Shown here: one piece after another, positions 2,925-58,663 of the stretch
Position numbering within the stretch: the stretch's first letter is position 1
Layout of the letters: each line of letters starts with the position of its first letter
IMG/VR virus record: IMGVR_UViG_3300036768_001066
DNA length: 64,000 nucleotides
Origin: a virus
Taxonomy: Duplodnaviria; Heunggongvirae; Uroviricota; Caudoviricetes
Strand: one strand, 5' to 3'
The notes under the pieces: model-generated
What the model saw: the letters and a program-made list of their open reading frames with translations, nothing else
Databases searched by the model: none
What the model was told of the DNA's origin: nothing
Made by a program: the position numbers and the translations under genes

Positions 2925-3038
2925 ATGATCCACAATTTTAAAGAATTCAGCAAACTGAACGAGGCGAGCCGCTCCAAGATAGAGGAGGTGCATGGTATGT
3001 TCGAGGATAACTCTATAATTTACAAAGTGACCCTATAA
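2925..3038 (+). CDS. small protein (37 aa) of the leader family (MIHNFKEFSKLNE...)
   Basis: Hand-translated small ORF absent from the six-frame track (under 60 aa). Carries the family leader. Its TAATG stop overlaps the start of the next ORF. Confidence 0.3.
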   Translation: MIHNFKEFSKLNEASRSKIEEVHGMFEDNSIIYKVTL

Positions 3039-14455: not shown

Positions 14456-16384
14456 ATGGCGGGAATAGCACACTTAAACGAAATCTACAAAAAGAAGGGC
14501 AAAGATTTTCTGGACAAACTATTCGACAGTTATGTCACTATAAACGAAAAGCTCGACGCGAGCGCCTTTGGTGTAGAGAAGAATCCGATCAGCAAGAAGA
14601 TCGAATTCTTCAAGCGCAACACTACAAACCCAATTTCCCAGGTGGACAGGACCCTCGTGCGTTATTACGAGGCACCTATCGAGCATATCAACAGCCTTGG
14701 CGACAAGGTGCTTGCCAAGCTACCCAGTGGATGGAGGTTCGGTATGGAGTACTTCGCCAACTCAAATCCGCAGGAGCTTGTTTATGACAAGCTCCCGAAG
14801 AACGGATTGGTGCTGTCGTACATTCACGTGAAAAACTCGGCCGGCAAGATGGTCCGTACAATCCAGGACAAGGAAGAGCTCGATAAGTGGGCAGACATCC
14901 TGCAGGTGGAGCGCGCGCCGATAATATTCCAGGGCGTTCTCAACGACGACCAGAGGATAAAGATCCTCGACTTCCTCGACACGCCGCAGGCCGAGCTCGA
15001 GAAGAAGTTCAAGACCGAGTCCTTCGTGAAGTACGTAATATCCATTCTGAACCCAAAGATGCGCAGCACGGTCCTGAACAAGGATCTGGAGAAGCCAATA
15101 GAGGGAATAGTGTTTAGGTTCGGCAGCGACGACGATGACGTGGTGCTTGCCAAGATGGTGGACCCGATATTTTCGCAGATGGCGCAGAACAGGGTCAACG
15201 AGACGAACGACACGCCGAACGACATCTATTACATGACGCTCATCGACATAGCCAACTACGTCGAGAACCTAAACCTAAAGAAGTTCAAGCCGAAGGGGCG
15301 TAACTTCGACGACAGGTACATAAACTTCATCTGCGACCTATTCATAAAGTTCATATCCGAAAGGGGGGAGGACTACAAGAACATCAACTTCTCCGAGCCG
15401 GCTTACATGAAGAAAAAGGAGTTCGACCTCAACAGGCAGATGATACCGAACCAGGAGGCGCTCGATCTCATAGACTCGGCGGACTCGTACAAGAAACTGT
15501 TCAAGATAATGCTGGCATCTCTGCGCAAGCACAAGAAGAAGGCAAACAACTTCTTCAGCCAGGAGGTTATCCGCCAGTTCAATGGCACCATAGACAAGAT
15601 AAACAACCACCTATCACAGAACCTAAGGGAGAGCCTCAACGAAAACGACGTGCCATTGTTCGGCGAGTTCATAGCACAGAGGGGCAGGCCCGAAGTTGAG
15701 GACGAGGACGCAGACACCGATGGTGATTCTGTGGATGATTCCGATCCTGAAATGACCGGGCTCAAAAACACTATGGACCTTTTGTCCGCCGATGAGCCGA
15801 AAGAAGAGGAGGACGTCAAGAAGAAATCCAAGAAGAAGGGAAAGAGGGTTAACATAATAGTCGGAAGGTTCCAGCCGTTCCACAACGGGCACGCCGAGAT
15901 GGTGAAGGAACTTAACGAGGCCAACGGCTTGCCCGTCGTAATAGTCGCCGTGCATCCGGGACACAACAAGTCGGGCAACAGCCCGTTCACTATATCCACA
16001 CTGAGGACGATGCTTGGCAACCTGCACAAGGACACCAACGACCTCGTGATCGGCTACAGGATAGTCGGCAGGGGCTTCATACAGGACATCATAGATTCGC
16101 TGAGGCCGGAGTTCGAGCCGATACTGTGGGGCGCGGGTCCTGACAGGATAAACGACTACCGCAAGCAGCTCGAGTTTAACTTCAAGCGCAACAACGAGCT
16201 CGACCTCGACGAGAAGTTCGAGGTGATGGAGACTCGGAGGATCATATCGGGTACCGACGTGCGCAAGCTCGTGGACGAGGACAAGTTCGGCGAGTTCAAG
16301 ACGCACGTGCCAAAGACGGTGCAGGGCTTGTATCCTATACTTAGGAACGACATCCATAATAGCAAAGAACCCGCCAATCAGTAA
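14456..16384 (+). CDS. multidomain protein. N-terminal domain of unknown function with a KLDAS motif (possible ligase-like K-x-D-G variant), an acidic linker, and a C-terminal NMN/NaMN adenylyltransferase domain (NadM/NadR type).
   Basis: The C-terminal region has GRFQPFHNGH (G-x-F-x-P-x-H-x-G-H nucleotidyltransferase signature) and later ISGTDVR. The linker is DEDADTDGDSVDDSDPE. Confidence 0.55.
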   Translation: MAGIAHLNEIYKKKGKDFLDKLFDSYVTINEKLDASAFGVEKNPISKKIEFFKRNTTNPISQVDRTLVRYYEAPIEHINSLGDKVLAKLPSGWRFGMEYFANSNPQELVYDKLPKNGLVLSYIHVKNSAGKMVRTIQDKEELDKWADILQVERAPIIFQGVLNDDQRIKILDFLDTPQAELEKKFKTESFVKYVISILNPKMRSTVLNKDLEKPIEGIVFRFGSDDDDVVLAKMVDPIFSQMAQNRVNETNDTPNDIYYMTLIDIANYVENLNLKKFKPKGRNFDDRYINFICDLFIKFISERGEDYKNINFSEPAYMKKKEFDLNRQMIPNQEALDLIDSADSYKKLFKIMLASLRKHKKKANNFFSQEVIRQFNGTIDKINNHLSQNLRESLNENDVPLFGEFIAQRGRPEVEDEDADTDGDSVDDSDPEMTGLKNTMDLLSADEPKEEEDVKKKSKKKGKRVNIIVGRFQPFHNGHAEMVKELNEANGLPVVIVAVHPGHNKSGNSPFTISTLRTMLGNLHKDTNDLVIGYRIVGRGFIQDIIDSLRPEFEPILWGAGPDRINDYRKQLEFNFKRNNELDLDEKFEVMETRRIISGTDVRKLVDEDKFGEFKTHVPKTVQGLYPILRNDIHNSKEPANQ

Positions 16385-16422
16385 TGGATGCACAGTACCA
16401 AGCAGATAACATTCATTCTCTA

Positions 16423-16455
16423 CAATAACCGTTCCGTAGAGGGAACGGTTTTTAA
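16423..16455 (+). terminator. rho-independent terminator (aaccgttcc / ggaacggtt plus T-run)
   Basis: 9-bp hairpin followed by TTTTTAATTTTTTT. Confidence 0.6.
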
Positions 16456-16783
16456 TTTTTTTACCCAGATACAGATTAGACCCTGGTGCATGGTCAACGG
16501 CCCGACCTCGTTGTCACGCCGAAGATGGTTTGTGCGGGCAGAGCACTTTTTCGAGCGAGGACTGGACTGGACTGGACTTCCGTGGGTCGAAATCGATATA
16601 TATAACTCAGGGGCTCATCGACCAGTCCCCGGACATGACATTTAACTTCACGAAATACCCGAAGAACAGAAATTTCTGAATGATATATAAGAAAAGAAAT
16701 AGTTACCACTACAATGAGCAAAATAAACAATTTTAACGCATCAATGAGGCGGACGAGTCCGTAAAACTAACTCTTAAGAAGTA

Positions 16784-17110
16784 ATGGGACTTAAGAAATT
16801 CGGAGAGTTCGAGACGACCCGCAATGAGGCGCTCGAAGCGGAGAAGGCCAACGCTTGGAAGAAGCTCGATGACGAGCGCACAATCATTGGCGTTGAGTGG
16901 CGCGGAGCCGGTAAATGGGGGACGGTAGGTATCGTTGCCGTGCACAACACGAAGATGAACTACTGGACCGCTTACATGGGCGTGGCCGATGAGCGTGACG
17001 AGCGGCAGGACGCATTCGCTATCGCGGACTACGGCAATAAGATGGTGCCGGAAGAGGCCAAGGCGTACTTCCCGCACATCAAGGACATCAAATACAAAAT
17101 GGAGGACTAA
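16784..17110 (+). CDS. hypothetical protein, leader family (MGLKKFGEFETTRNE)
   Basis: 108-aa ORF. Confidence 0.5.
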   Translation: MGLKKFGEFETTRNEALEAEKANAWKKLDDERTIIGVEWRGAGKWGTVGIVAVHNTKMNYWTAYMGVADERDERQDAFAIADYGNKMVPEEAKAYFPHIKDIKYKMED

Positions 17111-17640
17111 TGAGGAAGATATTCACATTCGATAGGTTCGTAAACGAGAACTACGTAAACGAGGACGGCTACGGCGATCTTCCTTTTTTCTACGCCAAGA
17201 ACGGCGACGTGGCTAACTACTTCTTCAAGGTAGGGGCGGAGACTCAGCGCGGTTTCGTGATAAGCATCGGCAAGTTCAGCAAGTTCGCACAACCATCTGA
17301 GGGCAAGGCCGAATACTCAGTGCTGTCCATAACGGAATTGCCGGTCGATGCTATCGATCAGGCTGTTATCGACAAGGGAAATTTCGAGACCAACGACAAC
17401 CACATCGAGGTCGACGAGCGTGAACTCAACAAAGTACTCGAGATGCTCTGCAAATGCGTTGAGGACTACCTGCAGAAGAATCCGAAAGTTACCAAGTTCT
17501 ACGACGAGATGCAGGCTAACCTGAGGAACACTCAGTACACGTCTAAGATGACTGCGCATCTCGACAAGTGGCCAGGTGGCCAGGGCGCTTGGAAGATGCA
17601 GGAGGTAGAAGCCGGCAAACTAAACTACATTGTTAAATGA
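17110..17640 (+). CDS. hypothetical protein, leader family (MRKIFTFDRFVNENYVNE)
   Basis: 176-aa ORF. Confidence 0.5.
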   Translation: MRKIFTFDRFVNENYVNEDGYGDLPFFYAKNGDVANYFFKVGAETQRGFVISIGKFSKFAQPSEGKAEYSVLSITELPVDAIDQAVIDKGNFETNDNHIEVDERELNKVLEMLCKCVEDYLQKNPKVTKFYDEMQANLRNTQYTSKMTAHLDKWPGGQGAWKMQEVEAGKLNYIVK

Positions 17641-17810
17641 AGAATATAAAACTATTTGAGGATTTTTCGGTAAACGAAGAAGGATGCTGAGGCTCCGAGG
17701 GAACCCAATGACGAGGAGCGCGGCACCGATCCAGAACTAAACGATTTTGAGTCCGAAGAGTCCGAGGACGAGAAAGAAAAGGACGAAGAAAACTAAACCA
17801 CAATTGATAA
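17637..17810 (+). pseudogene. chimeric pseudogene: 5' end of gene 17811, an internal segment of gene 18167 and the 3' end of gene 18550, joined out of frame
   Basis: 17681-17750 is identical to 18208-18277. 17744-17808 is near-identical to 18891-18960. The first 45 nt equal the start of 17811. The resulting ORF stops after 17 codons. Confidence 0.55.
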
Positions 17811-18170
17811 ATGAAGAATATAAAACTATTTGAGGATTTTTCGGTAAACGAGGATAACCTCGACGCCGCGCTGCAAGCGCTGGTGCCAGACCTGAAGACT
17901 GCATTCATGAATTACCTCGAGAACAGGGACCTCGTAGAGCTCATGGACGAGCTCGATGCGTTGGACGGACGTGCGAGGAAAATAAAGGGCGGATCTAAAA
18001 AAGCAGGTTTGTGGTGGAGGTTCTTCGATAACGATACCGGAGCCAACACGGCTGGCACATTAAGGAGAGATCTCGAATTGCCGGCATCGCATGCGAACCA
18101 CAAGTACGCGATAGAGAATATGGAGCTGGCCGTTGAGCCGGACACAAAAATGAAAGTCTACTTTTCGTGA
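17811..18170 (+). CDS. hypothetical protein, leader family (MKNIKLFEDFSVNE)
   Basis: 119-aa ORF. Confidence 0.5.
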   Translation: MKNIKLFEDFSVNEDNLDAALQALVPDLKTAFMNYLENRDLVELMDELDALDGRARKIKGGSKKAGLWWRFFDNDTGANTAGTLRRDLELPASHANHKYAIENMELAVEPDTKMKVYFS

Positions 18171-18550
18171 AGCACATTAAGAAAATAAGCGACCTCTTCG
18201 AGAAGAAGGATGCTGAGGCTCCGAGGGAACCCAATGACGAGGAGCGCGGCACCGATCCAGAACTAAACGAGGGACTCGTGCCGGTGTTCAAAGACGTTGC
18301 ACAGAATGACAAGGAGATGGTCGACCAGAAGGACCTTGCCGGATTCATTAAGGGGAAGATGGATGCGGCTGCGGAAGAGAAGGATCCGAGCAAGCAGCGA
18401 CCGGTTCTCATAGTCGTCCAGAACCCAAAGTACTGGCAGCGCGAGTTCGTCGTAATGGAGATCGAGGGAGACAACATCAAGACGCAGGACCGCAACAAGA
18501 AGCCGGTCACGCTAAAAATAAAGGATGTCATCGGCGTATTCGCACAGTAA
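18167..18550 (+). CDS. hypothetical protein, leader family (GTG start, KHIKKISDLFE)
   Basis: 127-aa ORF. The GTG start overlaps the upstream TGA stop. Confidence 0.5.
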   Translation: MKHIKKISDLFEKKDAEAPREPNDEERGTDPELNEGLVPVFKDVAQNDKEMVDQKDLAGFIKGKMDAAAEEKDPSKQRPVLIVVQNPKYWQREFVVMEIEGDNIKTQDRNKKPVTLKIKDVIGVFAQ

Positions 18551-18954
18551 TGAGCGACACATCATCATACAAACCACCGAAGTCTGCAATCAAGCCATAT
18601 CCCGGAGACAAGGGATACGAGCTCGTACGTAAGAATTACAAGAGGTCTATCTGGACGTGGAACGACTACGCCGACAAGAAACCGGACATTGAGAAGGCCG
18701 AGGGTGTCGACGAGGCGGACAGCTCATCGTTCAGCAGGTACCAGGGAGAGATCTCGGGCATGGGAATGTCGCAGGACTTCCCGGGCGAGACCGTCGGGTA
18801 TACTGGACCGCTCAAGTACGGTAATTTCATGGCTACTGACGACTACCTCGATCCGGACGATGAGGAGTTGAAGAAGCTCAAATCTATAGACGATTTTGAG
18901 TCCGAAGAGTCCGAAGAGTCCGAGGACGAGAAAGAAAAGGACGAAGAAAACTAA
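18550..18954 (+). CDS. hypothetical acidic protein
   Basis: 134-aa ORF with an acidic C-terminal SEESEESEDEKEKDEEN. Confidence 0.5.
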   Translation: MSDTSSYKPPKSAIKPYPGDKGYELVRKNYKRSIWTWNDYADKKPDIEKAEGVDEADSSSFSRYQGEISGMGMSQDFPGETVGYTGPLKYGNFMATDDYLDPDDEELKKLKSIDDFESEESEESEDEKEKDEEN

Positions 18955-18966
18955 ACCACAATTGAT

Positions 18967-19419
18967 ATGTTTGTTATTGTATCAGTAATTGCATTTGTCG
19001 TCATCCTGGCGGTAATCATTGCCAAGGCCGCGAAAAGCGTACCTGCTGGTTCGGAGCCGATCCATAAGAAGGACTGCGGATGTGACAGCAACAGCAACTG
19101 CCAGCCGAAAGAGACCATGGCGTACCCATTGACTTTGGACCCGTCGGTGTCACCAGTTCCTATGCACGCCGAGGTTGCGGTAGAGACCGAGCAGCCCAAG
19201 GACGAGGTAATAGTCGAGCCAGTTGCTCCGGTGGTTGAAGAGAAGGTGGAAGAGCCTAAGGCTGGAGCTCCCATTGTGGAAGAGCCGAAGGCAGAGGAGC
19301 CTAAGAAGAAAGCGGAGCCTAAGAAGAAAGCGGAGCCTAAGAAGAAAGCGGAGCCTAAGAAGAAGCCTGCTGCAAAGAAGACCTCCAAGAGCAAGGACAA
19401 AGGTAAGGACAAGAAGTAA
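18967..19419 (+). CDS. membrane-anchored protein with a Lys/Pro/Glu-rich repetitive tail (AEPKKK x4)
   Basis: N-terminal TM helix. 18-bp tandem repeat gaagaaagcggagcctaa repeated four times at 19300-19370. Confidence 0.45.
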   Translation: MFVIVSVIAFVVILAVIIAKAAKSVPAGSEPIHKKDCGCDSNSNCQPKETMAYPLTLDPSVSPVPMHAEVAVETEQPKDEVIVEPVAPVVEEKVEEPKAGAPIVEEPKAEEPKKKAEPKKKAEPKKKAEPKKKPAAKKTSKSKDKGKDKK

Positions 19420-19422
19420 TTC

Positions 19423-19848
19423 ATGTACGGCATACTCGGCATACTCGCACTGTGGATAGCTTACGCCGCCTTCGAGGGCGTGCGCGAGGCTTACTATTTC
19501 TCAGCTAAAGTAAAGTGCGACGCGCACAAGGGAGTTGACGAGCACGCGTTCTTCACGGCGCAGCGTGCCCAGGTGGCATTCATCGCTGCCGTCGCGTTCT
19601 ACGCGCAGATGCAAAGCTTACCATGGACCGCGTATTACGTGGCCTCCATGATACTGATGTTCCCGTTCATGCACGACGGTTCCTACTACGTGACGAGGCA
19701 TCACCTGGACGGGGTGTACGACAAGGGGTGGTTCGATCATAGCAAGACTTCCACGGCCAAGACTGAGAAGTTGTTGACCCCATTAAACAGGACCATCATG
19801 TTTGGCGTTGGACTTGTGACTTACTTAATAAAAACACTTTTGTTATGA
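19423..19848 (+). CDS. hypothetical membrane protein
   Basis: 141-aa ORF with hydrophobic segments. Confidence 0.4.
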
Positions 19849-20267
19849 GGATCAAGAGGTTCACCGAACTTAACGAGAAGGCGGAGATGTATGACTTCGG
19901 GTTTACTTCCGAGGTGCAGCGCCGCGATGTCAGCTACTACGGTGAGGACACTGTGGTGGACAAGTCCAAGGATCAGTACATAGATGCAAACGACCTGACC
20001 GTCGTGTGGGAGATGAACTTCGATAACCGCAAGTCTGGCATAAACAGCATGGCCCCAGTTATACATAGGGTCAGCGGCTATTACACAGTAGTCACACCTT
20101 CGGACGACAAGGACGGCGAGAATGAGGTTGAGTTCAGCATCATCAAGGGCGACGGAGAGTGGGAAATGAACGGTGTGCTTTCCAGCGAGTTTGAGTTTGG
20201 TGGTTCCATGTACCCCAATGACATTGAGATCGATTTCAAGAAGAAGACGATAACCGTCAACTTCTGA
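19845..20267 (+). CDS. hypothetical protein, leader family ([11 protein letters not shown])
   Basis: 140-aa ORF. Confidence 0.5.
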
Positions 20268-24406: not shown

Positions 24407-24465
24407 TAATACTGGCTATCAAGTAGTTATGATATTTTCCACAGATTTATTTTATTCAAATAAAC

Positions 24466-24490
24466 TTCGTATCTTTACGAAGTAATGAAA
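24466..24490 (+). promoter_or_regulatory. conserved upstream element CTTCGTATCTTTACGAAGTAAT, 30-50 nt before the ORF at 24519. Bacteroidota-like -7 box TAnnTTTA.
   Basis: Near-identical element TTCGTACCTTTACTAAGTAAT at 26797-26817, the same distance before the ORF at 26848. Contains TAtcTTTA / TAccTTTA. Confidence 0.4.
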
Positions 24491-24518
24491 ACCTACTAAT
24501 AACCTAATCTCAATAACC

Positions 24519-26756: not shown

Positions 26757-26796
26757 AGTGATTTCCGCTGAGATGTAAACTATATTGTCAAAAATT

Positions 26797-26821
26797 TCGT
26801 ACCTTTACTAAGTAATCAATC
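26797..26821 (+). promoter_or_regulatory. second copy of the TTCGTAyCTTTACnAAGTAAT promoter-like element
   Basis: See 24466-24490. Confidence 0.4.
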
Positions 26822-26847
26822 AAAAAGAAACCATAAAAGTTAAAGTT

Positions 26848-41289: not shown

Positions 41290-43278
41290 ATGAATACAAA
41301 CCTGCAACTACAAGAGAACTACGTGTTCCTCCTCGAGCGTGCTGAGAGCAACCTCGTGGTAGAGGCTACGGGTAGCAATCCGAAAGACTACATTCTCGAA
41401 GGTATCGCCGCTATCATGGGCGAGGAGAATAACAACCACAGGATTTACGAGGCAAAGGAGTATCTTCCGCACCTCGAGTACCTAAACAAGAAGATTCAGC
41501 AGAAGCGCCTGGTCGGAGAGCTCGACCACCCAGAGAAGTTTGACGTTTCCCTCAAGAACATATCCCACATAGTTGAGAAGCTCGAGTACAACGAGAAGGA
41601 CAGGACCCTCAGGATTCGCGTGCGCTTGCTCGACACTCCACACGGACAGATTGCCAAGACATTAGTAGACGCCGGATACCCGCTGTCTATTTCTTCGCGT
41701 GCTGCCGGTTCTGTTATGGAGAACAAGAAGGTTAAGATCAAAAAGATATTCACATACGACCTCGTCGCAGACCCTGGTTTCGAAAAGGCACAGCTTGATA
41801 GGATTTACGAGAGCGCGAACTTTGATGCGGGCACTAAAAAGTCCGTTATTTCAGAGCTTACGGACATCTCGGAGAGCTTTGCGCCAGAATTTTCCGCACA
41901 CACGAAGATATATAGTGTAGATCCGAACAATGCGGCGTTTAAGAAGGCGATGCTGGATGAGGACAAAAAAACCAACAACGACATGAATCAATTCGTAACA
42001 TCTGAAGAGCTCAACGATTGGTCCGCTGCATTCCGTACCGGAATCATGAAGGAGATTGAAAATGTTAAGTCGAAGGTTACCGAGTCTACTGATGCTGAAA
42101 TTATCAAGACCCTTCTTGAAAAAATCGAGAAGCACGAGAGGTACATGAAGTATCTCGCAGGCAACCTTGATAAGAACATTCAGTACACTGAGTACGTGGC
42201 TGAGAACCTCGACAAGAACATCGAGTATTCTAAGTACCTCGCAGAGAACCTCGACCGTAACATTTCTTACAGCGAGTACCTCGCAGAGAACCTCGACCGT
42301 AACATTTCTTACAGCGAGTACCTCGCAGAGAACCTCGACCGCGGTATTTCGTTTATGGACTACCTCGCAGAGAACCTCGAGAAGAACATCAACTACAGCG
42401 AGTACCTCGCAGAGAACCTCGACAAGAACATTTCTTATTCCGAGTACCTCGCAGAGAACCTCGACAAGAACATTTCTTATTCCGAGTACCTCGCAGAGAA
42501 CCTCGACAAGAACATTTCTTATTCCGAGTACCTCGCAGAGAACCTCGACAGGGGAATCGGATATTCTGAGTATTTGGCAGAAAAAATCGAGAATAACATC
42601 GCTTATTCCGAATATATAGCTGAAAACGTCGTTGCTGCGGCCCCAGCGGTTACCGCAATGCCAGCAGCTACGAACAATAGTTCTGCACCGATAGCCAAGG
42701 TTAACGAGAGCGTAGCTGAGGCGAACAAATACACTGGTTTGTCCGCACAGATAAACCAACTGCTGGAGGCCGCTACTAAACAGAAAGCCGCCACCAAAAT
42801 GAACGAGAGCCAGTACCACTTCTTCCGCTTCCTAAGCGAAGCTAAGAGGAACGAGTTCGAAGCCCTCGAGGAGGCCAAGAAAGAAAAGGTCGCAAACGCC
42901 CTGAAACCAGGTGCGTACTTTTCAGAAGCTGACGTAACCAAAATTTGGGAAGCAGCTTTGATTGAGAAGCAGGATGACACTCCGAAGTTCCTGCAAATGA
43001 TTCCGGAGTCGATTAAGCCGCTCTACGAGGCGCTTACCGAATCCGAAAAGCAAGGCATACTTGCACAGAGCAAATTGATGAACCTCGACACCGAGTACAA
43101 AATCAAGAACTTCTGGACAAGCAGGCCATTTGTAAGGGGCAAGGTTGTTGGACTTGTAAAACTCAACGAAAATGAAACGGCAGTTCCAGCGAACACCGAT
43201 AAAACCAAGACACTCGGCTACGGCACAGAGTACATGGACAAAATCGCGTCACAACTCGGACAACGTTTTAAAAAGTAA
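41290..43278 (+). CDS. prohead protease (T4 gp21-like, N-terminal) fused to a scaffold/core domain containing about 11.5 tandem 14-aa repeats (YSEYLAENLDKNIS)
   Basis: N-terminus GIAAIMGEENNNHRIYEAKEY...GELDHPE resembles the gp21/U35-type prohead protease signature (GxxG..N.NgRiY). The helical acidic repeat array is encoded by a 42-bp periodicity at 42151-42630. The gene lies immediately upstream of the major capsid gene. Confidence 0.6.
   Translation: MNTNLQLQENYVFLLERAESNLVVEATGSNPKDYILEGIAAIMGEENNNHRIYEAKEYLPHLEYLNKKIQQKRLVGELDHPEKFDVSLKNISHIVEKLEYNEKDRTLRIRVRLLDTPHGQIAKTLVDAGYPLSISSRAAGSVMENKKVKIKKIFTYDLVADPGFEKAQLDRIYESANFDAGTKKSVISELTDISESFAPEFSAHTKIYSVDPNNAAFKKAMLDEDKKTNNDMNQFVTSEELNDWSAAFRTGIMKEIENVKSKVTESTDAEIIKTLLEKIEKHERYMKYLAGNLDKNIQYTEYVAENLDKNIEYSKYLAENLDRNISYSEYLAENLDRNISYSEYLAENLDRGISFMDYLAENLEKNINYSEYLAENLDKNISYSEYLAENLDKNISYSEYLAENLDKNISYSEYLAENLDRGIGYSEYLAEKIENNIAYSEYIAENVVAAAPAVTAMPAATNNSSAPIAKVNESVAEANKYTGLSAQINQLLEAATKQKAATKMNESQYHFFRFLSEAKRNEFEALEEAKKEKVANALKPGAYFSEADVTKIWEAALIEKQDDTPKFLQMIPESIKPLYEALTESEKQGILAQSKLMNLDTEYKIKNFWTSRPFVRGKVVGLVKLNENETAVPANTDKTKTLGYGTEYMDKIASQLGQRFKK
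42151..42630 (+). repeat. coding tandem repeat, 42-bp unit repeated about 11.4 times, inside the protease-scaffold gene
   Basis: Near-identical units tacctcgcagagaacctcgacaagaacatttcttattccgag. Confidence 0.8.
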
Positions 43279-43296: not shown

Positions 43297-44811
43297 ATGA
43301 AAATGATCAACGAACAAGAGGTTTTTGAAACTTGGTCTCCGGTTATCAACGAGAAGACTAATATCAAAGACTCGAACAAAGTAGAATGGCTTTCTAAGTA
43401 CTGCCACTACCACTCGCTCAATGAGTCTGCTATCCACGCTGGATACGGCACTCTCGACGCGCTTAACGGTATGGGCCAGCCTTTGGCTCCGACCAGGTCC
43501 GCTAACGGTTCCGGCGACAAGTTCCCTTCACTTCTTCCGCTCGCTATCCAGGTAGCAGCTAAGACTGTAGGTTTCGACATCGTTCCGGTTATCCCGATGC
43601 CAGGCCCAACAGGTGTTCTCACCTACCTCGATTACGTTTACGCAGGTGGACGTATCGACAACGCTGACCATAAGCCACTCCTGATCAAGTTCAACGCGAC
43701 AGGTACGTGGACTAACGGTACATCGTACACCGCAACTTCAGGTGCTGGTACCCTTGCCCTTACCTTCGTTGGTAAGTCGAGGATCGACGGTTACCCAATC
43801 TTCAAGGTTGGTGCATCTACTCCGTCTACCATCTCTGTAGCTCAGGTTATTGGTGTGGTTGGCGCGACAGTAACAACTGACGCAGCTCCGGTTGCAGCTA
43901 CTAACGCTGCTGCCCTCGTAGCAATGCTCGAAGATCACATCCAAGGTTTCGCTGGTGCAGGTGACACTGACACAGCTAACTGGACCGGTCCTTACGCAGA
44001 TGCTAACGACTCTGGTCCAATGACCCGTGAAGTTGGTGAGTCTACCTACTACAGGACGACTAACCTCAAGACTTTCACCAAGTTCGTTGAGACTGAGACC
44101 TACCAGCTTGCTGCGCAGGTAACTACTGAGCAGATACAAGACCTTAACAAGCAGTTCGGTATCGACGTTGTGTCGATGGTTGAGAACTCGCTCGTTAACG
44201 ATGTATCACAGCACATCAACAAACACATCCTCGTGACCGCATTCGGTCTTGGTACGCAGAACGCTACTGAGTTCGCTGCAACTGAAGGACAGGTGCTCGA
44301 CCTCAACCTTACGGCTCTGCCTACGGTTGGTACGTACGAGAACCTCCAGACGTTCCAGAGGAGAATCTTCAGCCGCATACTTGCTGCCGCTAACGTAGTA
44401 GCAAACCGTGGTCGTCGTGGACCTGCGAACTTCGTTGTATGTAACTCTCAGATTGCTACGGCGATCCAGGACATCAGCCAGTTCCAGCCAGCTCCGTTCG
44501 CGAACACCGCAAGCCAGAACAACGGTGCTCTCTACCCAGTAGGATCACTCGCTGGTATGACTGTGTACGTTGACCAGAACATGAAGTGGACTGACACTCG
44601 CGTACTTGTCGGCCGTAAGGGCGCAGACGACGAGCCAGGTCTGAAGTTCATGCCGTACATGATGGCTGAGTCTATCCAGACAATCTCTGAAGGCACTATG
44701 TCTCCGAAGATCGCTGTGAAGTCTCGCTACGCCCTCGTGTCAGCTGGATTCCACCCACAGACAATGTACTTCACTTTCACGATCCAGGTGCCTACCTCAG
44801 GTATCATCTAA
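43297..44811 (+). CDS. major capsid protein, T4 gp23-like (HK97 fold)
   Basis: FDIVPVIPMPGPTGVLTYLDYVYAGG resembles the conserved gp23 core block (V..V.PM..P.G.i.YL). 504 aa. Preceded by the protease-scaffold gene and followed by a strong terminator. Confidence 0.75.
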   Translation: MKMINEQEVFETWSPVINEKTNIKDSNKVEWLSKYCHYHSLNESAIHAGYGTLDALNGMGQPLAPTRSANGSGDKFPSLLPLAIQVAAKTVGFDIVPVIPMPGPTGVLTYLDYVYAGGRIDNADHKPLLIKFNATGTWTNGTSYTATSGAGTLALTFVGKSRIDGYPIFKVGASTPSTISVAQVIGVVGATVTTDAAPVAATNAAALVAMLEDHIQGFAGAGDTDTANWTGPYADANDSGPMTREVGESTYYRTTNLKTFTKFVETETYQLAAQVTTEQIQDLNKQFGIDVVSMVENSLVNDVSQHINKHILVTAFGLGTQNATEFAATEGQVLDLNLTALPTVGTYENLQTFQRRIFSRILAAANVVANRGRRGPANFVVCNSQIATAIQDISQFQPAPFANTASQNNGALYPVGSLAGMTVYVDQNMKWTDTRVLVGRKGADDEPGLKFMPYMMAESIQTISEGTMSPKIAVKSRYALVSAGFHPQTMYFTFTIQVPTSGII

Positions 44812-51754: not shown

Positions 51755-51776
51755 ATAATCGAGGATATATAAGACA

Positions 51777-51887
51777 TGAAGAACATCAAGCTATTTAAAC
51801 AATTCGTGGGAGAACTAAACGAGACCTACCACGATATGAAATACGACGGACACGACATGGTCATGTTCGGCAAATACATATCATAAA
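51777..51887 (+). CDS. small protein (36 aa), leader family (MKNIKLFKQFVGELNE)
   Basis: Hand-translated ORF with TATATAAGAC directly upstream of the ATG. Confidence 0.3.
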
Positions 51888-57450: not shown

Positions 57451-57527
57451 TTTGGAATTTTTTTTGTTGTTATGCTTCCATATATTAAAAAAAACTTCTT
57501 ATCTTCACTATAAAATCAATCAAAATC

Positions 57528-58415
57528 ATGACAATGAAAACCGTAAAACTTTTTACTCAGTCACAGTGGGAAACATTCGAGTACGATAAACTCAGCGACA
57601 TCTCCGCTGAGTTCAAAAAGCGCGGCATTAGCATCGGCCAGCGCGTGAGCATCGGCGAAGGCGCGAGCATCGGCGAAGGCGCGAGCATCGGCGAAGGCGC
57701 GAGCATCGGCGAAGGCGCGAGCATCGGCGAAGGCGCGAGCATCGGCGAAGGCGCGAGCATCGGCGAAGGCGCGAGCATCGCCCCCCGCGCGAGCATCGGA
57801 TGGGGCGCGAGCATCGCCCCCCGCGCGATCATCGGCGAAGGCGCAAGCATCGACCCCCGCACGAACATCGGCGAAGGCGCGAGCATCGGCGAAGGCGCGA
57901 GCATCGGCGAAGGCGCGAGCATCGGCGAAGGCGCGAGCATCGCCCCCCGCGCGATCATCGGCCGGGGCACGAACATCGGCGAAGGCGCGAGCATCGGCGA
58001 AGGCGCGAGCATCGGCCCACGCGCGAGCATCGGCGAAGGCGCGAGCATCGGCCCACGCGCGAGCATCGGCGAAGGCGCGAGCATCGGCCCCCGCGCGAAC
58101 GTCGGATGGGGCGCGATCATCGGCGACGGCGCGATCATCGGCCCCCGCGCGAACATCGGCCGGGGCGCGATCATCGAGGAATGCGTTATCGTGCGCTCTC
58201 TCAGCTTCAACGGCTCAAGACATCACGTGTCATATTGGGGCTCAGATGAGATTCAAATCGGCTGCATGAAATACTCTATAAAATATTGGCAAAATAACCT
58301 CAAGAGCGTCGGTGAAACCGAAGATTACAGCGCAGAAGAGATCGCGGAGTATGGCAACTACATCGAGTTGATTGCAAATTTGCATGAGAAAAACGCGCTG
58401 TCTCACATCGGATGA
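57528..58415 (+). CDS. hexapeptide-repeat (left-handed beta-helix-type) protein with the leader MTMKTVKLFTQSQWE
   Basis: About 28 consecutive I-G-E-G-A-S hexapeptides, encoded by an 18-bp tandem array. Non-repetitive C-terminal domain. Confidence 0.55.
   Translation: MTMKTVKLFTQSQWETFEYDKLSDISAEFKKRGISIGQRVSIGEGASIGEGASIGEGASIGEGASIGEGASIGEGASIGEGASIAPRASIGWGASIAPRAIIGEGASIDPRTNIGEGASIGEGASIGEGASIGEGASIAPRAIIGRGTNIGEGASIGEGASIGPRASIGEGASIGPRASIGEGASIGPRANVGWGAIIGDGAIIGPRANIGRGAIIEECVIVRSLSFNGSRHHVSYWGSDEIQIGCMKYSIKYWQNNLKSVGETEDYSAEEIAEYGNYIELIANLHEKNALSHIG
57650..58190 (+). repeat. 18-bp coding tandem repeat array (ggcgaaggcgcgagcatc and variants), about 30 copies
   Basis: Directly visible periodicity. 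It creates spurious antisense and shifted-frame ORFs in the six-frame track. Confidence 0.85.
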
Positions 58416-58663
58416 AATCGGTAAAACTTTTTACTCAGTCACGGTGGGAAACATTCGAGTACGATAAACTCAGCGACATCTCCGCTGAGTTCAAAAAGCG
58501 TGGCATTAGCATCGGCCAGCGCGCGAGCATCGGATGGGACGCGAGCATCGGCCCCCGCGCGAACATCGGCGAAGGCGCGAGCATCGGCGAAGGCGCGAAA
58601 ATCGGTCGGTGCGCGAGCATCCGCCAGCGCGCGAGCATCGACGATGGCGCGATCATAAAGTAA
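58412..58663 (+). CDS. truncated paralog of the hexapeptide-repeat gene (same leader, 5 repeats, no C-terminal domain)
   Basis: N-terminal 40 aa are near-identical to 57528 (MKSVKLFTQSRWETFEYDKLSDISAEFKKRGISIGQR). Confidence 0.4.
   Translation: MKSVKLFTQSRWETFEYDKLSDISAEFKKRGISIGQRASIGWDASIGPRANIGEGASIGEGAKIGRCASIRQRASIDDGAIIK

Follow-up and report, generated by a model that had tools for sequence, protein, structure and literature searches.

A 174-bp mosaic of three neighbouring genes in an uncultivated phage of ~374 kb: a probable recombination scar in a cluster of leader-bearing genes

The locus described here raises the question of how a 174-bp segment (17637-17810, + strand), a mosaic of three pieces copied from genes B, C and D, came to adjoin these same genes, and whether it has any function. 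The segment lies in a 64-kb window (the whole stretch of DNA that was analysed, 64,000 nucleotides) from an uncultivated phage with a genome of ~374 kb; other genes of this window specify a capsid protein and a prohead protease, both of T4 type, together with a UvsW-like helicase and a family-B polymerase. The surrounding gene cluster (16784-20267) forms one closely packed unit, with a terminator-like hairpin on either side (16427 and 20328). Upstream of it, 14456-16384 encodes a 642-aa fusion of RNA-ligase-like and cytidylyltransferase-like domains that is conserved in three related contigs (L002, L007 and L010), and further downstream an 804-aa protein with major-vault-protein domains (MVP_shoulder 2e-27, Vault_3, Band_7/SPFH) is encoded at 30830-33244.

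Composition and reading frames of the segment

The features of the locus are as follows.

17110-17640 (+): gene A, 176 aa, with the leader MRKIFTFDRFVNE; its TGA overlaps the ATG at 17637 (ATGA)
17637-17810 (+): mosaic segment, 174 bp, an insertion relative to every relative compared
17634-17677 (+): piece 1, TAA and the first 41 nt of gene B, 44/44 identical to 17808-17851
17676-17744 (+): piece 2, codons 13-35 of gene C, 69/69 identical to 18202-18270
17741-17809 (+): piece 3, the last 17 codons of gene D, its stop codon and the D/E spacer, 61/61 exact to 18907-18967
17637-17690 (+): residual ORF of 17 codons, MKNIKLFEDFSVNEEGC and a stop codon, start-coupled to the stop codon of gene A
17811-18170 (+): gene B, 119 aa, the source of piece 1, with TAAACGAGG at 17845 coding for V-N-E, where its leader ends
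18167-18550 (+): gene C, 127 aa, leader MKHIKKISDLFE, beginning with GTG; the source of piece 2, with TAAACGAGG at 18264 coding for L-N-E
18550-18967 (+): gene D (134 aa) and the 12-nt D/E spacer, ending at the A of the ATG of gene E; parent of piece 3

Each exact patch (44, 69 and 61 nt) was present in two copies in the window, against 0.00 expected from 100 shuffles, and the only comparable repeats elsewhere in the window were tandem arrays and, at 58412, a partial copy of 88% identity. The order and orientation of the pieces are those of their parents, and no point substitutions were found within the 174 bp. For piece 1, a repeat finder matched 17629-17680 to 17803-17854 at 50 of 52 positions, with an exact core (17634-17677 and 17808-17851) and the first mismatch past the piece at position 17678; the piece holds the leader MKNIKLFEDFSVN and the GA of the next codon, and the body of gene B reads …GTAAACGAGGATAACC. 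Piece 2 is the variable acidic linker between the leader of gene C and its L-N-E motif. For piece 3, 29 of 31 positions matched between 17738-17768 and 18887-18917; overall, 17741-17809 corresponds to 18890-18967 minus one 9-bp GAGTCCGAA unit, so that piece 3 has two GAGTCC units to the three of the window's gene D, and its exact part (17749-17809, identical to 18907-18967) takes in the stop codon of gene D and AACCACAATTGATA.

The original prediction, that the segment had been stitched from three neighbouring genes, was borne out by this self-comparison, in which the repeats were identical on realignment (44/44, 69/69 and 61/61) and far beyond chance. It had named the right sources, and the extents were revised: piece 1 has 41 nt from the ATG, or 44 with the preceding TAA (instead of 45); piece 2 has 69 nt at 18202-18270 (instead of 70 nt at 18208-18277); and piece 3, which does comprise the 3' end of gene D with its stop codon and spacer, has 61 exact nucleotides with one 9-bp unit missing (instead of 65). 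The claim that all three parents belong to the leader family failed, only two of the three donors being leader-bearing in this genome, where gene D carries no leader.

The ORF that begins at ATG 17637 encodes MKNIKLFEDFSVNEEGC and ends after 17 codons at a TGA (17688-17690). Joint 1 shifts the frame by +1 relative to gene C, and only a 17-residue, leader-only peptide can therefore be made. Pieces 2 and 3, which had also been thought to be out of frame, share one frame with each other, KKDAEAPREPNDEERGTDPELNDFESEESEDEKEKDEEN, ending at the stop codon of gene D itself (17794-17796); this second frame lacks a start codon, and a TAA lies before it at 17671. The ancestral ATGA coupling to gene A now serves the 17-residue ORF alone, while gene B is preceded by the spacer native to gene E. 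The segment is thus derived from coding sequence, broken in frame, without an intact counterpart and not conserved, as is usual for a pseudogene.

No function of its own was apparent for the segment. It is highly improbable that it is a functional element, be it as a 17-aa peptide made up of a leader alone, as the product of programmed frameshifting, as an antisense gene or as a regulatory RNA. The ATG at 17637 does keep the ATGA coupling to gene A, so that the 17-aa ORF is probably translated, but the segment and its two-frame arrangement occur in one genome only, and each candidate was rejected on its own signals. Neither a slippery heptamer nor a +1 motif was present in 17674-17690 (frameshifting); the antisense ORFs 17633-17908 and 17737-17904 had GC3 values of 0.36-0.40, against 0.62-0.71 for real genes; and the RNA fold had a z-score of -1.6, with no Rfam match and no promoter- or terminator-like site inside the segment.

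Absence from relatives and age of the insertion

GenBank phages gave no DNA or protein match to the locus, none of the cluster's eight genes (pre and A to G) had a family in Pfam or PHROGs, neither B nor C retrieved a relative from IMG/VR, and an exact 38-mer from piece 2 had no match. A search of IMG/VR and JGI metagenomes found one distant locus (L001/L003, on a 482-kb contig; 52% aa identity for gene A), a protein search with D found three relatives, and a protein cluster table revealed a closer one; this table also lists A and D of the window itself, on a JGI contig of 373,759 bp. Five contigs, with identities from 93% at the nucleotide level down to 52% at the amino acid level, were compared with the window:

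Window: pre-A-(174 bp)-B-C-D-E-F-G
L010 (about 93% nt): u1-u2-pre-A-B-C-X-D-E-F-G
L006 (about 80% nt): …u2-pre-A-B-C-D-E-F-G'
L009: …u2-pre-A-B-C-D'-E-F-G
L007/L008: u1-u2-pre-A-C-X-D-E-F-G
L001 (52% aa, gene A): A-s62-D-E-F-G

The stop codon of gene A overlapped the start codon of the next gene (ATGA), with no spacer, in all five (L010, L006, L009, L007 and L001), and this joint between gene A and a leader is, judging from these contigs, the ancestral arrangement. Pairwise alignment with L010 gave a clean 174-bp insertion in the window, as did alignment with L006, L009 and L007. The comparison with related phages that had been proposed as a check thus found the segment in none of five relatives, which makes the 174 bp a young insertion specific to this lineage. 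Pieces 2 and 3 were 100% identical to the window's C and D, and 91% and 97% identical, respectively, to L010 (piece 2 was 82% identical to L006); the pieces being closer to the window's own genes than to L010, the event is younger than the split from L010 (7%). The tail of gene D has two GAGTCC units in L010, L006 and L009. By parsimony, the scar would have kept the older D allele, and the window's D would have expanded afterwards.

An artefact of assembly or library, whether from a wrong path through the repeat graph, from merging of strain variants or from chimeric reads, is very unlikely. The locus does come from a metagenome assembly and is full of short repeats, and the exact proteins B, C, D and E are not on record in the gene-position index (nor, by exact-protein look-up, is the edge-truncated B that had been predicted). 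Against this, a k-mer graph cannot yield three novel joints of 2-4 nt overlap without reads that contain them, and protein D with its three-unit tail is present on two JGI contigs. In an independent k-mer assembly of SRR11727984 (Logan, presumably k = 31), gene A lies on a 75.7-kb contig that stops at window position 17663, 30 nt into the leader repeat, and the next contig resumes at about 19335. The last 31-mer of the first contig begins at 17633, the lone base separating the two left flanks of the leader, which is where a true two-context repeat would end and not where a SNP bubble would. Such a break at 17633/17663 is predicted only where two different left contexts of the leader occur among the reads, and therefore supports a real repeat; the support for the joints consists of one assembly and, indirectly, this contig break, and the Logan reads may be from the same sample.

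Joints and origin of the segment

The three joints are given below, with a slash at the point of joining.

J1: B GGTAAACGA/GGATAACC and C CTCTTCGAGA/AGAAGGATGC give the scar GGTAAACGA/AGAAGGATGC; shared GA (17676-17677)
J2: C GAACTAAACGA/GGGACTCG and D TCTATAGACGA/TTTTGAGTCC give the scar GAACTAAACGA/TTTTGAGTCC; shared ACGA (17741-17744)
J3: D/E spacer AAACTAAACCACAATTGATA/TGTTTG and A/B AAACTAAACTACA-TTGTTA/AATGAAG give the scar …CCACAATTGATA/AATGAAG; shared TA (17808-17809)

Exact microhomology was 2, 4 and 2 nt at J1, J2 and J3, respectively (chance of such microhomology at three random joints, ~7e-4). The ACGA of J2 sits within a longer imperfect match, TA[A/G]ACGA (7/8), and the TA of J3 is the right end of an imperfect match of 17 out of 20 aligned positions; the end of gene A reads …ATTGTTAAATG. 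The original prediction had left illegitimate and homologous recombination side by side: joints at 2-4 nt of microhomology agree with the former, while homologous recombination between leaders was rejected as the driver, the leaders being too diverged at the DNA level, with different codons in each gene.

The segment is most probably a young, lineage-specific recombination scar without a function of its own, formed by tandem duplication of B-C-D and subsequent deletions. An unequal exchange between the D/E spacer (AAACTAAACCACAATTGATA) and the end of gene A (AAACTAAACTACATTGTTA), which resemble each other, would first have duplicated a 1158-bp B-C-D block in tandem. The upstream copy would then have lost 352 bp (the body of B and the start of C) and 623 bp (the body of C and most of D), both between short direct repeats, leaving 183 bp; later, the surviving gene D would have gained one 9-bp GAGTCCGAA unit. 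One GAGTCCGAA unit of present-day gene D is lacking from the segment, whose length is therefore 174 and not 183 bp, and the repeat spacings of 174, 526, 1149 and 1158 fit the arithmetic 1158 - 352 - 623 - 9 = 174. On the simplest reading, a leader, an acidic linker and an acidic tail are what is left after loss of the folded bodies of B, C and D. We infer the order and number of the steps, which may have been several events or one multi-jump event, and the machinery would be the short-homology recombination typical of T4-type phages. Further deletion scars, and indels with microhomology at their borders, were found in the same operon.

The stepwise path needs three or four events, yet not one point substitution has accumulated in 174 bp. 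Moreover, the 9-mer TAAACGAGG has just two copies in the 1158-bp block, one at V-N-E of B and one at L-N-E of C, where J1 and J2, respectively, have their left breakpoints; the right partners, CTTCGAG at the leader end of C and ATAGACGAT in D, are also hydrophobic-x-acidic codon strings. Since independent random deletions would not be expected to start at the only two copies of TAAACGAGG, a motif-guided or single-event process may be involved. It is possible, if rather unlikely, that a nascent strand switched template three times in one complex event with no full duplication intermediate, passing from the leader of B to the linker of C, the tail of D and, via the D/E spacer, back to the A/B joint. 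The 2-4 nt of microhomology at every joint and the lack of substitutions would both fit, and two left breakpoints at TAAACGAGG come more easily from linked jumps than from independent deletions. The end product alone is, however, the same as that of the stepwise route, the 9-bp difference from D still calls for a separate event, and a strand with TAAACGAGG at its end should have landed on the second perfect 9-mer, yet did not; experiments with T4 document stepwise amplification followed by deletion (PMC9391042).

The structure of J1 also bears on whether the mosaic was once an intact, in-frame gene of 55 aa (leader of B, linker of C, tail of D), made by a crossover at CGAG and killed by the loss of one GA from GAGA. 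A crossover at the CGAG common to B (AAACGAG) and C (CTTCGAG) would be in frame, giving GTAAACGAGAAGAAGG, the actual joint is exactly 2 nt shorter, within the (GA)2 tract, and joint 2 is in frame. This course of events is nevertheless doubtful: the frame-corrected chimeric protein had no homologue among 5.8 billion proteins, the product would have no folded domain, and a direct joint at GA microhomology is simpler. On the reading as duplication followed by deletions, the exact repeats of 44, 69 and 61 bp should destabilise the structure in a recombination-proficient phage, so that it may be polymorphic rather than fixed.

Turnover of leader genes and comparison with known systems

Several other rearrangements were seen in and around the cluster. 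At 16388-16783, the window has the wreck of u1 (321 aa) and of the leader gene u2 (284 aa), both intact in L010 and L007; the u2 leader is retained with a 7-nt deletion and is fused to the last ~24 nt of u2, making this a second scar with leader kept and body deleted, ~900 bp upstream of the 174-bp segment. In L010 (3756-4004) and L007 (4752-5000), C and D are separated by X, a leader gene of 82 aa (MKNLKKFEDLKINE…) that is absent from the window (site 18547-18553), L006 and L009; a TGA repeat borders the indel, and the start codon of D is ATG without X and GTG with it. Gene B is missing in L007. In L006 (3188-3583, compared with 19845-20267 of the window), G has had its body replaced (31% aa identity): the exchange begins just past the leader codons AACGAGA and extends up to the stop codon, and identity stays at about 80% in the leader and in either flank. 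Part of D, its first ~30 residues, was duplicated at an earlier time in L009 (1769-2302; D', a leaderless copy fused upstream of an internal leader, VIKEFHEFNESE, and D) and in L001 (5522-5710; s62, a separate 62-aa leader gene). Gene E (18967-19419) encodes a Cys-rich membrane protein with an 18-bp tandem repeat (19287-19376, encoding KKAEP units) whose copy number varies among relatives and at which Logan contigs break. The idea that modules are shuffled within the leader family and that the family diversifies in this way does not apply to the segment itself, a non-coding, decayed copy of which no intact version was found; wider reshuffling is backed by the relatives, between which B, X, u1 and u2 come and go, and by L006, where the exchanged part of G begins precisely where the leader codons end and reaches as far as the stop codon.

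The window has at least 15 genes that begin with M-K/R-x-I/L/V-K-x-F…[LVI]-N-E, and [LIVFM]NE was found in residues 6-22 of 10 of the 88 ORFs, against 2.2 expected (P = 7e-5). The strict form MKxIKxFExFxxNE was present on 19 further IMG/VR contigs (L011-L029; sizes include 135, 151, 176, 313, 483 and 676 kb) in front of unrelated bodies, while the leader strings gave no match in the searchable literature. Some leader proteins resemble enzymes, among them an AAA+ ATPase and a hexapeptide-repeat protein. The latter (57528-58415; left-handed beta-helix, 18-bp periodicity, ~27 copies) is followed at 58412-58663 by a partial tandem copy of the 5' end of its gene (245 nt, 88% identical), whose start overlaps the stop codon of that gene (ATGA). 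A 45-nt A/T-rich motif (TATATT…TTCGTA.CTTTAC.AAGTAATCAA…), which may be a phage promoter or leader element, lies just upstream of three genes (24451-24495, 26781-26825 and 57481-57525), and two ORFs of 37 and 36 aa (2925-3038 and 51776-51886; MIHNFKEFSKLNE… and MKNIKLFKQFVGELNE…), barely longer than a leader, may be truncated leader genes.

The internal proteins of T4 have in common only a capsid-targeting sequence of 10-19 residues, MKTYQEFIAE, in which residues 4 and 7 serve targeting, and gp21 cleaves after L/I-X-E (PMC9026906, PMC8442874, PMC3012670, PMC12373910). The leaders described here likewise have hydrophobic residues at 4 and 7 and a hydrophobic-x-E site, in a genome that encodes a gp21-type prohead protease (Peptidase_S77, 41290-43278) and a gp23-type capsid protein (43297-44811, E = 8.7e-42); in the latter, SLNE/S occurs at residues 40-43, at about the position of the T4 gp23 maturation site. 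Going by this resemblance, we put the chances that the leader is a capsid-targeting propeptide at about even. The S77 protease is fused to about twelve 14-residue repeats (YSEYLAENLDKNIS; a 42-bp repeat at 42103-42648), carries VNE, MNE and LNE motifs in its C-terminal part and may be a protease-scaffold fusion. A more tentative suggestion is that the leader-end codons AAC GAG (for N-E, where the protease presumably cuts) double as an in-frame joint for recombination by which huge phages with T4-type capsids swap, delete and duplicate the bodies of capsid-targeted proteins, the scar being a failed product. Hints in this direction are the breakpoints at TAAACGAGG, the partners CTTCGAG and ATAGACGAT, the exchange of G after AACGAGA in L006, and an excess of AACGAG (58 occurrences in the window, ~16 expected).

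The segment adds one more example to a known kind of event: it is an ordinary recombination scar, and the cassette locus around it is variable. The scar alone changes nothing in phage biology; its value is that of a dated footprint, which preserves an older allele of gene D, marks a locus of quick leader-gene turnover between 93%-identical strains and places the short-homology duplication and deletion known from laboratory T4 at work in nature, in an uncultivated phage of ~374 kb. If the leader is a capsid-targeting signal, the cluster would supply a large arsenal of proteins for injection, one that evolves quickly, with the leader-end codons as a candidate point of exchange.

Microhomology-mediated template switching (FoSTeS/MMBIR) produces complex mosaic insertions, mainly in eukaryotic and bacterial chromosomes, and the segment resembles these in that several short, nearby donors are stitched together in their original order with 2-5 nt of microhomology per joint. 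In T4, segmental tandem amplifications and deletions occur at microhomologies of 6-10 bp, and 2-10 bp were reported in earlier work on rII and genes 16-18 (PMC9391042). As in these amplifications (Srikant, Guegler and Laub 2022, PMC9391042), a small block of accessory genes was apparently duplicated in tandem here, at short microhomology joints that leave one repeat copy each, with later deletions flanked in the same way; here, however, only a fossil is seen, in a metagenome-assembled genome, and it is the duplicated copy itself that suffered the deletions. PeSL cassettes (promoter-early plus stem-loop) mediate the shuffling of ORFans in T4-type phages (Arbiol et al. 2010, PMC2839356), and there, too, small ORFans are gained, lost and replaced at fixed points of hyperplastic regions. 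The genes described here differ in having no flanking promoter/stem-loop units, the recurrent joint being at AACGAG codons or at start/stop overlaps, and a mobile regulatory cassette of the PeSL type was rejected, as promoter- or terminator-like sites between the genes of 16784-20267 did not exceed chance. With the internal-protein loci of T-even phages the cluster shares many unrelated small proteins that have only an N-terminal leader in common, the pattern M-K-x-hydrophobic-x-x-F followed by a hydrophobic-x-E site, and hypervariability between relatives; it differs in that the leader is longer, with [LVI]-N-E as the putative cleavage motif, that some leader proteins are enzyme-like, and that the leader genes lie in several scattered clusters, at least 15 of them in 64 kb.
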